From the sequence record PQ330092: a stretch of DNA of 64,000 nt; one strand, written 5' to 3'. Source of the DNA: Escherichia phage JP4. Below the pieces are notes generated by a model. It was not told the origin of the DNA, did not search any database, and saw only the letters and a list, made by a program, of their open reading frames with translations. Shown in pieces: positions 43,940 through 44,814 of the stretch. The translations under genes and the position numbers were made by a program. Position 1 is the first letter of the stretch. Every line of letters begins with the position of its first letter.

Positions 43940-44219
43940 TGAAATAAATCTTACAGGATATTTTTTACAAGAATCAATGATTAAATTTAGTGATAAATTT
44001 TCAGTACTGGATGGTATCGAAATGTGGCATGTCAAACCACTGTTCCACACTTTCAGTAAAGAGCACAAAATGTTATTGACTGAAGCCAGTAAATCAAATA
44101 ACATATGTGAAATCAAAATTGGTGTAAATGTCTATAAAGGGATGGTTATCTTTTTTGACAATAACAGCAACTACTTTTATATTGTTAAGGAGCATTACGT
44201 TGACAAATACAAATACTAA
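43920..44219 (+). CDS. hypothetical protein (99 aa)
   Basis: ATG ORF. Confidence 0.55.
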   Translation: METYMCDEINLTGYFLQESMIKFSDKFSVLDGIEMWHVKPLFHTFSKEHKMLLTEASKSNNICEIKIGVNVYKGMVIFFDNNSNYFYIVKEHYVDKYKY

Positions 44220-44814
44220 TACATATTTCCGTTATCTTCGCTTAGGTCTTTCCCTACGTCCGATCCGTGGAAAGTGCGATTCACTCGCTGACCTTGACTA
44301 TGCATATGCATTACATCATGAAGGTGTACAGTATGTATTGGGTGATTATGGTGAATTTGAAGAAACAAATGACAGTACTGGAATTAATGCTGGTGTAGAA
44401 AATCTTAACAACATTGCTAACAGTTCTCGCCATGACATTGTGTTACAGATTCAAAACTTTATTGAGCAACACACAGGCAAACGTGTTTGGTGCTATGTCG
44501 GTACTGATGCACAAATGTCAATTTCATTCGGTAACGATGAAGGATATGTTGCACAGCTTATTATGGATTTTGAATCTGAAGAGAAGTTTTTAGAATTCAA
44601 AGAAAAGATTATTCAGTCACTTGTTGATATGGGTATCCCCGAAGATAAAATGCCAGAAGTCCAAAACATTGATGAATTTGTTTTGATTCCATCTGATGAG
44701 AAATATGATGCAATGTTTACTGCTCTTAATATTCCAGGAGTTATTGTGGAGTACTTTGATGATGGTGATGATAGTATCTATATCGATCTAGATGACGATG
44801 ACGACGATGAATAA
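44200..44814 (+). CDS. highly acidic protein with poly-Asp C-terminus
   Basis: AAGGAG SD 44187-44192 then TTG 44200; ends ...DDGDDSIYIDLDDDDDDE; track start 44128 is unsupported. Confidence 0.6.
   Translation: MTNTNTNTYFRYLRLGLSLRPIRGKCDSLADLDYAYALHHEGVQYVLGDYGEFEETNDSTGINAGVENLNNIANSSRHDIVLQIQNFIEQHTGKRVWCYVGTDAQMSISFGNDEGYVAQLIMDFESEEKFLEFKEKIIQSLVDMGIPEDKMPEVQNIDEFVLIPSDEKYDAMFTALNIPGVIVEYFDDGDDSIYIDLDDDDDDE

Follow-up and report, generated by a model that had tools for sequence, protein, structure and literature searches.

An acidic protein of Escherichia phage JP4 and other Rak2-like jumbo phages: a predicted globular domain with a variable acidic tail

Two kinds of acidic protein offer the closest comparisons for the gene considered here. 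Ocr folds as a helical, elongated dimer that imitates bent B-DNA, whilst DNA mimics as a class are structurally diverse. In Escherichia coli SSB, T7 gp2.5 and T4 gp32, acidic C-terminal tails bind the basic clefts of partner proteins and compete with DNA, and a terminal hydrophobic or aromatic residue is essential in the tails of SSB and gp2.5 (…DDDIPF, …DF). Within a 64,000-nucleotide stretch of Escherichia phage JP4 (sequence record PQ330092; hereafter the window), we analysed the gene at 44200..44814 on the + strand, which runs from a TTG start to a TAA stop, encodes a 204-residue acidic protein and has an exact match among public sequences. An initial annotation of the window had likened the product to Ocr as a DNA-mimic anti-restriction protein. 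Our analysis tentatively favours a globular domain of conserved function bearing an acidic tail that serves as a flexible polyanion, not as a rigid mimic of B-DNA, a reading to which we assign a probability of about 0.45.

The acidity of the product was confirmed by computation. Counted from the TTG, the protein has an isoelectric point (pI) of 4.06 and a net charge of -30, with 25 Asp and 18 Glu (21% acidic) against 7 Lys and 6 Arg, in agreement with its first description as a strongly acidic, Asp/Glu-rich product of ~204 residues ending in DDGDDSIYIDLDDDDDDE. Among the 143 + strand open reading frames (ORFs) of at least 70 residues within the window, its charge per residue (-0.147) is the second most negative (window median -0.031), and it alone has nine or more acidic residues in the last 18, as well as the longest Asp/Glu run. 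This tail (residues 187-204, DDGDDSIYIDLDDDDDDE, 44758..44811, + strand) contains 12 acidic and no basic residues and holds 12 of the 30 net negative charges (40%); it is coded mostly by GAT/GAC repeats and has a hydrophobic motif, IYIDL, embedded in it. Without these 18 residues the core carries -0.097 charges per residue and 16.7% Asp plus Glu, ranking 11th of the 143. The proteome of the window is itself generally acidic (median pI 5.24), with 5 of 119 ORFs under pI 4.2. Five tandem paralogues at 19945-22242 (+ strand; 147-162 residues, 30-58% identity) are all very acidic (pI 4.05-4.66), and one of them (21327-21812, net charge -26) exceeds every other ORF of the window in negative charge per residue. 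Strong acidity is therefore not unique to the 204-residue protein.

AlphaFold2 models place residues 1-186 (44200..44757, + strand) in a globular alpha/beta domain. The model built from 41 sequences reached a predicted local distance difference test score (pLDDT) of 93.2 and a predicted template modelling score (pTM) of 0.86, the model from 16 sequences a pLDDT of 80 and a pTM of 0.75, and the two have identical topology. Confidence falls in the tail (pLDDT below 50 with 16 sequences and 56-62 with 41), which is presumably disordered. Fold searches covered PDB and BFVD with the 16-sequence model: Foldseek against PDB gave no informative match (best E 0.64) and no solved DNA mimic, and the BFVD search returned only RaK2, CBB and other entries of the same family. 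Sequence searches of PDB with two family profiles yielded chance matches only (E >= 0.16). On these models, residues 1-186 form a compact domain of a virus-restricted family, without a recognisable fold relative in PDB or BFVD outside that family. The initial annotation had set against its own proposal the picture of an ordinary enzyme domain with nothing more than a disordered acidic tail; the low-confidence tail, with its 40% of the net charge, agrees with that picture, whereas the core contains no identifiable enzyme.

Residues conserved across the whole family (Y45, R77-H78, W97, Q105, F110-G111, G115 and F173) are mostly glycines and aromatics. Conservation of polar character is strongest at Y45 and H78 (39-40 of 41 sequences), followed by W97, Q105, R76/77 and N112, and the polar residues invariant among 16 close homologues are R20, R23, Q44, Y45, D49, E54, D58, N68, R77, H78, Q105, D123 and E128. 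Because the positions kept family-wide lie in the core, whilst the tail is variable or absent, the conserved function would reside in the fold.

The protein belongs to PHROG 15575, a family of unknown function (E 2.6e-93, residues 1-200 on profile positions 1-193 of 193). Its exact 204-residue sequence is already public as a hypothetical protein (PBECO4, 121Q, UB and others; 82 contigs), and its orthologues 121Q gp421 (YP_009102008.1), RaK2_00451, GAP32_071 and CBB gp075 are likewise all annotated as hypothetical. Protein identity is 100% to 121Q and PBECO4, 60% to RaK2 and 28% to GAP32. Using tblastn, we recovered 69 phage records, all from Rak2-like jumbo phages and with identities down to 28%, whose hosts are Escherichia, Klebsiella, Salmonella, Erwinia, Yersinia, Serratia, Cronobacter, Pectobacterium and Xanthomonas. 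An exhaustive search of 1.84 billion representatives with a profile hidden Markov model returned just 44 cluster representatives. The remote members are 170-300 residues long, often with an N-terminal extension of ~70 residues, and all 22 that were tested match PHROG 15575; one 1556-residue protein with a RanBP1 domain (P0059) was rejected from the list as a compositional false positive. Pattern scans revealed no bacterial or archaeal copy in 185,579 species genomes, using the pattern of the close clade, and no distant relatives in IMG/VR.

Searches of annotated families were similarly silent. The protein has no Pfam match at E <= 0.1 and no NCBIfam match, none of 41 family members matches Pfam at E <= 0.01, and neither the protein nor the 41 members match the profiles of other anti-restriction or DNA-mimic families in Pfam, such as ArdA. 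The sole PADLOC match, to Cas8c at 13 bits, is noise. Literature searches on the accessions, the PHROG identifier, Asteriusvirus DNA mimics, RaK2 transcriptomes and PBECO4/121Q anti-defence returned nothing on this protein, nor is it mentioned in the main text of the phAPEC6 and CBB papers.

Distant members of PHROG 15575 occur on short contigs of ORFans and on one 1,917,244-bp metagenomic contig (L013; JGI 3300034157, Ga0370506_000001), to which the contigs L012 and L015 are related. These three contigs have ~35% G+C and consist almost entirely of ORFans, apart from two ~790-residue proteins that weakly match a PHROG of phage virion proteins; L015 also carries a TnpB/Cas12f-like gene near its family member. 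Either a very large virus or an artefact of assembly could account for the 1.9-Mb contig. Apart from the family member, the contigs of distant members and the window have no gene in common.

Comparison across the family indicates how the negative charge is distributed. In the Rak2-like clade the net charge of the core ranges from -10 to -20, and a tail free of Lys and Arg, with 4-15 acidic residues, is present in most members, whereas 32 distant members have a pI of about 5-9 and essentially no tail; the core of the JP4 protein is ~10 charges more negative than in these distant homologues. Tails are present in GAP32, BF, PHA46 and RaK2, with little or none in CBB (net -10, ending NIGDSK), XbC2 and Hallingskeid. 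Between genera the tail sequence is wholly rewritten (IYIDL, EWLDL, LFIEI or DDMDDDIDEEDE), and even among strains more than 90% identical the terminal Asp run varies from 3 to 7 residues within the GAT/GAC repeats. Despite this complete turnover of sequence, at least 30 of 38 sequences from the close clade have an acidic tail nearly without Lys or Arg. Because the distant members are near-neutral and tailless, and some close orthologues are tailless too, acidity appears to be a lineage-variable accessory. From these alignments we infer that the negative charge is a lineage-specific, recurrent but dispensable add-on and not a property that defines the family.

Under the favoured reading, the globular domain would do the conserved job of the family, probably by binding a protein or small ligand, or by catalysis, and any binding would proceed through the polar positions kept family-wide (Y45, R77-H78, Q105 and N112). 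The tail would act as a flexible polyanion that could engage, or compete for, a basic surface with which a host or phage partner binds nucleic acids; alternatively, it may keep the protein off DNA. Such action would resemble that of the acidic C-terminal tails of phage single-strand-binding proteins. The likeness to the tails of E. coli SSB, T7 gp2.5 and T4 gp32 lies in a short, presumably disordered C-terminus that is free of Lys and Arg, rich in Asp and Glu and interspersed with hydrophobic residues. It differs from them in that the protein has neither an oligonucleotide/oligosaccharide-binding fold nor an SSB match in Pfam, in that its tail ends in …DDDDDDE, the orthologues also ending in Asp or Glu with their hydrophobic residues internal, and in that its neighbourhood showed no connection with replication genes. 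Several points weigh against the favoured reading. The role of the tail is read from composition alone, and it may have no specific function, given that some orthologues lack it. The proposed binding patch is thinly supported, since only Y45 and H78 are near-invariant polar positions across the family, and the literature searches on family members offered no help. Additionally, a remote structural relative outside PDB and BFVD may have been missed.

In an Ocr-like role, the protein would mimic B-form DNA and, at an early stage of infection, sequester DNA-binding defence proteins such as type I restriction enzymes. Its bulk properties fit this, as the pI is ~4.05 for both proteins and the net charge of -30 compares with -28 for T7 Ocr (gp0.3, PF08684), and the acidic core and tail persist in Rak2-like orthologues down to ~27% identity. 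Both are also phage genes near counter-defence functions: the JP4 gene shares its block with a Dam methyltransferase, and RNA ligase 1 and polynucleotide kinase/phosphatase, which are typical of counter-defence, lie 5.6-8 kb downstream. Because DNA mimics are structurally diverse, a lack of homology to Ocr is not decisive. Nevertheless, the Pfam ocr model (PF08684), which scores T7 Ocr at E 1.3e-64 as a positive control, does not match the protein, and neither does any other Pfam model; aligning the family profile with T7 Ocr in hhalign gave a probability of 0.8%. The predicted alpha/beta fold is not Ocr-like and resembles no solved DNA mimic in the fold searches. Charge density also separates the two, for T7 Ocr carries -0.239 charges per residue and 29% Asp plus Glu, of which density the JP4 protein attains 0.6x overall and 0.4x in its folded part (-0.097, 17% acidic). 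The 40% of net charge in the tail belongs to a segment that is presumably disordered and dispensable, distant homologues of the same fold are neutral or basic, and the vicinity of Dam weighs little because synteny in these phages is genome-wide. The Ocr-like role is thus not supported by the profile, alignment and charge comparisons; we consider it improbable, and the label "Ocr-like" should not enter annotation. A looser function as a polyanionic decoy may still apply.

Three further accounts divide the domain and the tail differently. The globular domain may be an enzyme or small-molecule binder that works with the neighbouring nucleotidyltransferase or with Dam, the tail being incidental (an aid to solubility, or the result of repeat slippage). 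The 13 invariant polar residues of the 16-sequence close alignment, the near-invariance of Y45 and H78 family-wide, tight operon linkage with two enzymes in every genus inspected and a tail that is variable and at times absent all speak for this account; yet no significant profile or fold match was obtained, two family-wide polar positions are few for a catalytic site, and distant homologues are found with neither Dam nor a nucleotidyltransferase beside them, leaving it unlikely in our estimation. Alternatively, the acidity may have no specific role, the protein being an accessory of an acidic phage proteome with a homopolymer tail generated by slippage. This would accommodate the low median pI of the window and the presence of equally acidic ORFs such as that at 21327-21812, a GAT/GAC-repeat tail whose length varies between near-identical strains, and the loss of the tail in CBB and XbC2. 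It accounts poorly for the recurrence of a tail poor in Lys and Arg throughout most of the close clade despite sequence turnover, for the uniqueness of such a tail among the 143 + strand ORFs, and for a core that is also ~10 charges more negative than in distant homologues, and we likewise doubt it. The boldest proposal, on which we would place little weight, is that a domain found only in viruses, new in fold and otherwise neutral, was supercharged by the Rak2-like clade into a decoy, and that its disordered poly-Asp tail, with a short hydrophobic motif (IYIDL, EWLDL or LFIEI), blocks the site at which a host defence or nucleoid protein binds nucleic acids. If true, this would constitute a new anti-defence family acting through a flexible polyanionic tail and not through rigid mimicry.

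The extent of the protein is well defined. Its stop codon occupies 44812-44814 and the open frame in full spans 44128-44814 on the + strand, with a Shine-Dalgarno motif, AAGGAG, read from the sequence at 44187..44192 (+ strand), 7 nucleotides from the TTG at 44200-44202. 121Q, UE-S1, Turkey3 and A4 share this motif and its spacing, the UE-S1 record annotates a ribosome-binding site at this position, and the same TTG is the annotated start of both 121Q gp421 and UE-S1_374. In other phages the start codon that aligns with this TTG, always preceded by a Shine-Dalgarno motif, is TTG in A4 (after AAGGAG), GTG in PHA46 (just after an in-frame stop) and ATG in RaK2, GAP32 and CBB. The only competing product would be 228 residues long, with a hydrophobic N-terminal extension, starting from the ATG at 44128 that opens the frame and that is used in the E9.1 annotation and in some metagenome gene calls. 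In Turkey3, however, an in-frame stop lies between this ATG and the TTG, hence within the extension; A4, PHA46, RaK2, GAP32 and CBB have stops, or lack a start, upstream of the aligned TTG, GTG or ATG; the whole extension falls inside the upstream gene at 43920-44219 in a different reading frame; and the PHROG 15575 profile starts only at residue 1 of the 204-residue form. We therefore regard the longer product as very improbable indeed. Translation from the TTG at 44200, which the initial annotation had preferred over the start given by the ORF track, is strongly supported by these sequence comparisons.

Signals for transcription were also considered. We do not regard the near-consensus sigma-70-like site at 44155-44183 as a promoter dedicated to this gene: it falls within the upstream ORF, the transcription start predicted for it would interrupt the Shine-Dalgarno motif, phage A4 has not conserved it, and sigma-70-like sites are no more frequent here than in shuffled sequence. 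Downstream, a terminator-like hairpin (AUAGCCCGAC/UCGGGCUAU, then UUUUCG; 44820..44849, + strand) begins 6 nucleotides after the stop codon. It comprises a GC-rich stem of 9 bp followed by U4, with an RNA folding energy of -14.8 kcal/mol (z -2.57 against shuffles); a simple terminator scan made no call here because the U-run is short. The hairpin probably marks the end of the transcription unit.

Over 42000-46000 the sequence shares 99.3% identity with Escherichia phage vB_EcoM_E9.1 and 95-96% with 121Q and PBECO4, which belong to the Asteriusvirus "Rak2-like" jumbo myoviruses (~350 kb), and the window as a whole has 33% G+C and densely packed + strand ORFs. The gene is the last of a co-directional block that follows a strong terminator at 41379-41407 and is probably a single operon. 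The block opens with an ORF of unknown function (41955..42575, + strand; PHROG 16210), the start of which is uncertain, as its relatives are annotated with differing starts. It continues with a phage-type DNA N6-adenine methyltransferase (Dam; 42592..43113, + strand; PF05869 E 6e-32, PHROG 111 E 1.9e-56) and a HIGH-motif nucleotidyltransferase (43110..43643, + strand), which matches PHROG 3041 "cytidyltransferase" at E 1.2e-55 and Pfam CTP_transf_like at E 0.015. The acidic protein had been described as following a Dam/NMNAT pair, of which the Dam assignment stands whilst the NMNAT assignment lacks proof: with cut-offs of 112-150, the NadD/NMNAT models give the nucleotidyltransferase just 19 bits, no sequence relative was found in PDB, and one relative annotates it as a phosphopantetheine adenylyltransferase. 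Two small ORFs of unknown function separate it from the acidic protein, one of 97 residues (43646..43939, + strand; PHROG 14956; conserved in the operon, with counterparts GAP32_070, RaK2_00449 and BF_0065) and one of 99 residues (43920..44219, + strand; PHROG 38105). The latter overlaps the start of the acidic protein by 20 nucleotides, an overlap likewise annotated in 121Q, A4 and Turkey3, which suggests translational coupling.

This arrangement is conserved. In every Rak2-like jumbo-phage genus inspected the gene follows Dam, the nucleotidyltransferase and the small ORF or ORFs, as seen in 121Q, UE-S1, A4, Turkey3, PHA46, RaK2, GAP32, CBB, BF, XbC2 and Hallingskeid; the order thereby spans Asteriusvirus, Alcyoneusvirus (RaK2), Mimasvirus (GAP32, CBB and XbC2) and Eneladusvirus (BF), as well as PHA46 and Hallingskeid. 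Further downstream are a T4-type RNA ligase 1 (50403-51545, + strand; PF09511 and PF20819) and a polynucleotide kinase/phosphatase (52369-53301, + strand; AAA_33 and HAD_PNKP), which together make up the classical tRNA-repair pair, a countermeasure to anticodon nucleases. As gene order is conserved genome-wide in these phages, the Dam and counter-defence neighbours carry little weight for the function of the acidic protein. Directly downstream of the gene, at 44861-47006 (+ strand), lie seven tandem, strongly diverged paralogous small genes (87-103 residues, 9-25% identity) that share an N-terminal ..IQ.TYK.L motif and are annotated as hypothetical in relatives; a 66-residue CxxC...CxxC ORF at 46263-46463 splits this array.

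Upstream of the block we also detected a candidate new structured RNA of ~480 nucleotides (41448-41926, + strand). It lies between the strong terminator and the Dam block, in an ORF-poor stretch of ~550 nucleotides (41408-41954) with 38-40% G+C against about 30-33% around it. The DNA of the RNA region is 71-72% identical over 450-520 nucleotides to GAP32, CBB and PHA46, phages in which the acidic protein is only ~28-45% identical. An alignment of eight genera supports a consensus of 75 pairs in 17 helices, 27 of the pairs showing compensatory double changes. In this alignment, 92.9% of cells are paired, against 38-48% when the partners are slid, and the 27 covarying pairs compare with 4-9 in the slid controls; none of 500 shuffles reached the observed values. 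The occurrence of G-C to G-U variation indicates that the + strand is transcribed. The region matches no family in Rfam 15. A blastn search recovered the RNA from 70 records of Rak2-like phages, with 4-5 matches in each genome, whilst the window holds one copy only (41448-41926). Searching with nhmmer confirmed that Yen9-04 has two full-length copies, both diverged, and that a 371-kb IMG/VR contig has at least one such full-length copy besides a match truncated by the contig edge. Some records annotate tiny minus-strand ORFs over the region. The RNA is the more valuable by-product of this analysis, and is potentially weightier than the acidic protein.

Overall, public records already contain the ORF, its start and its family, and no new kind of system is demonstrable. 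More than 80% of the genes of Rak2-like jumbo phages are uncharacterised (83% in phAPEC6). Given the high-confidence model, the family could now be defined and named as a domain. The protein is a reasonable, low-priority candidate for anti-defence and host-takeover screens of Rak2-like jumbo phages, because its family spans phages of at least nine host genera, adopts a predicted fold without a known relative and has undergone negative supercharging specific to this clade. If the favoured reading is true, it would represent a further, structurally new example of a phage protein of the acidic-tail or decoy type.

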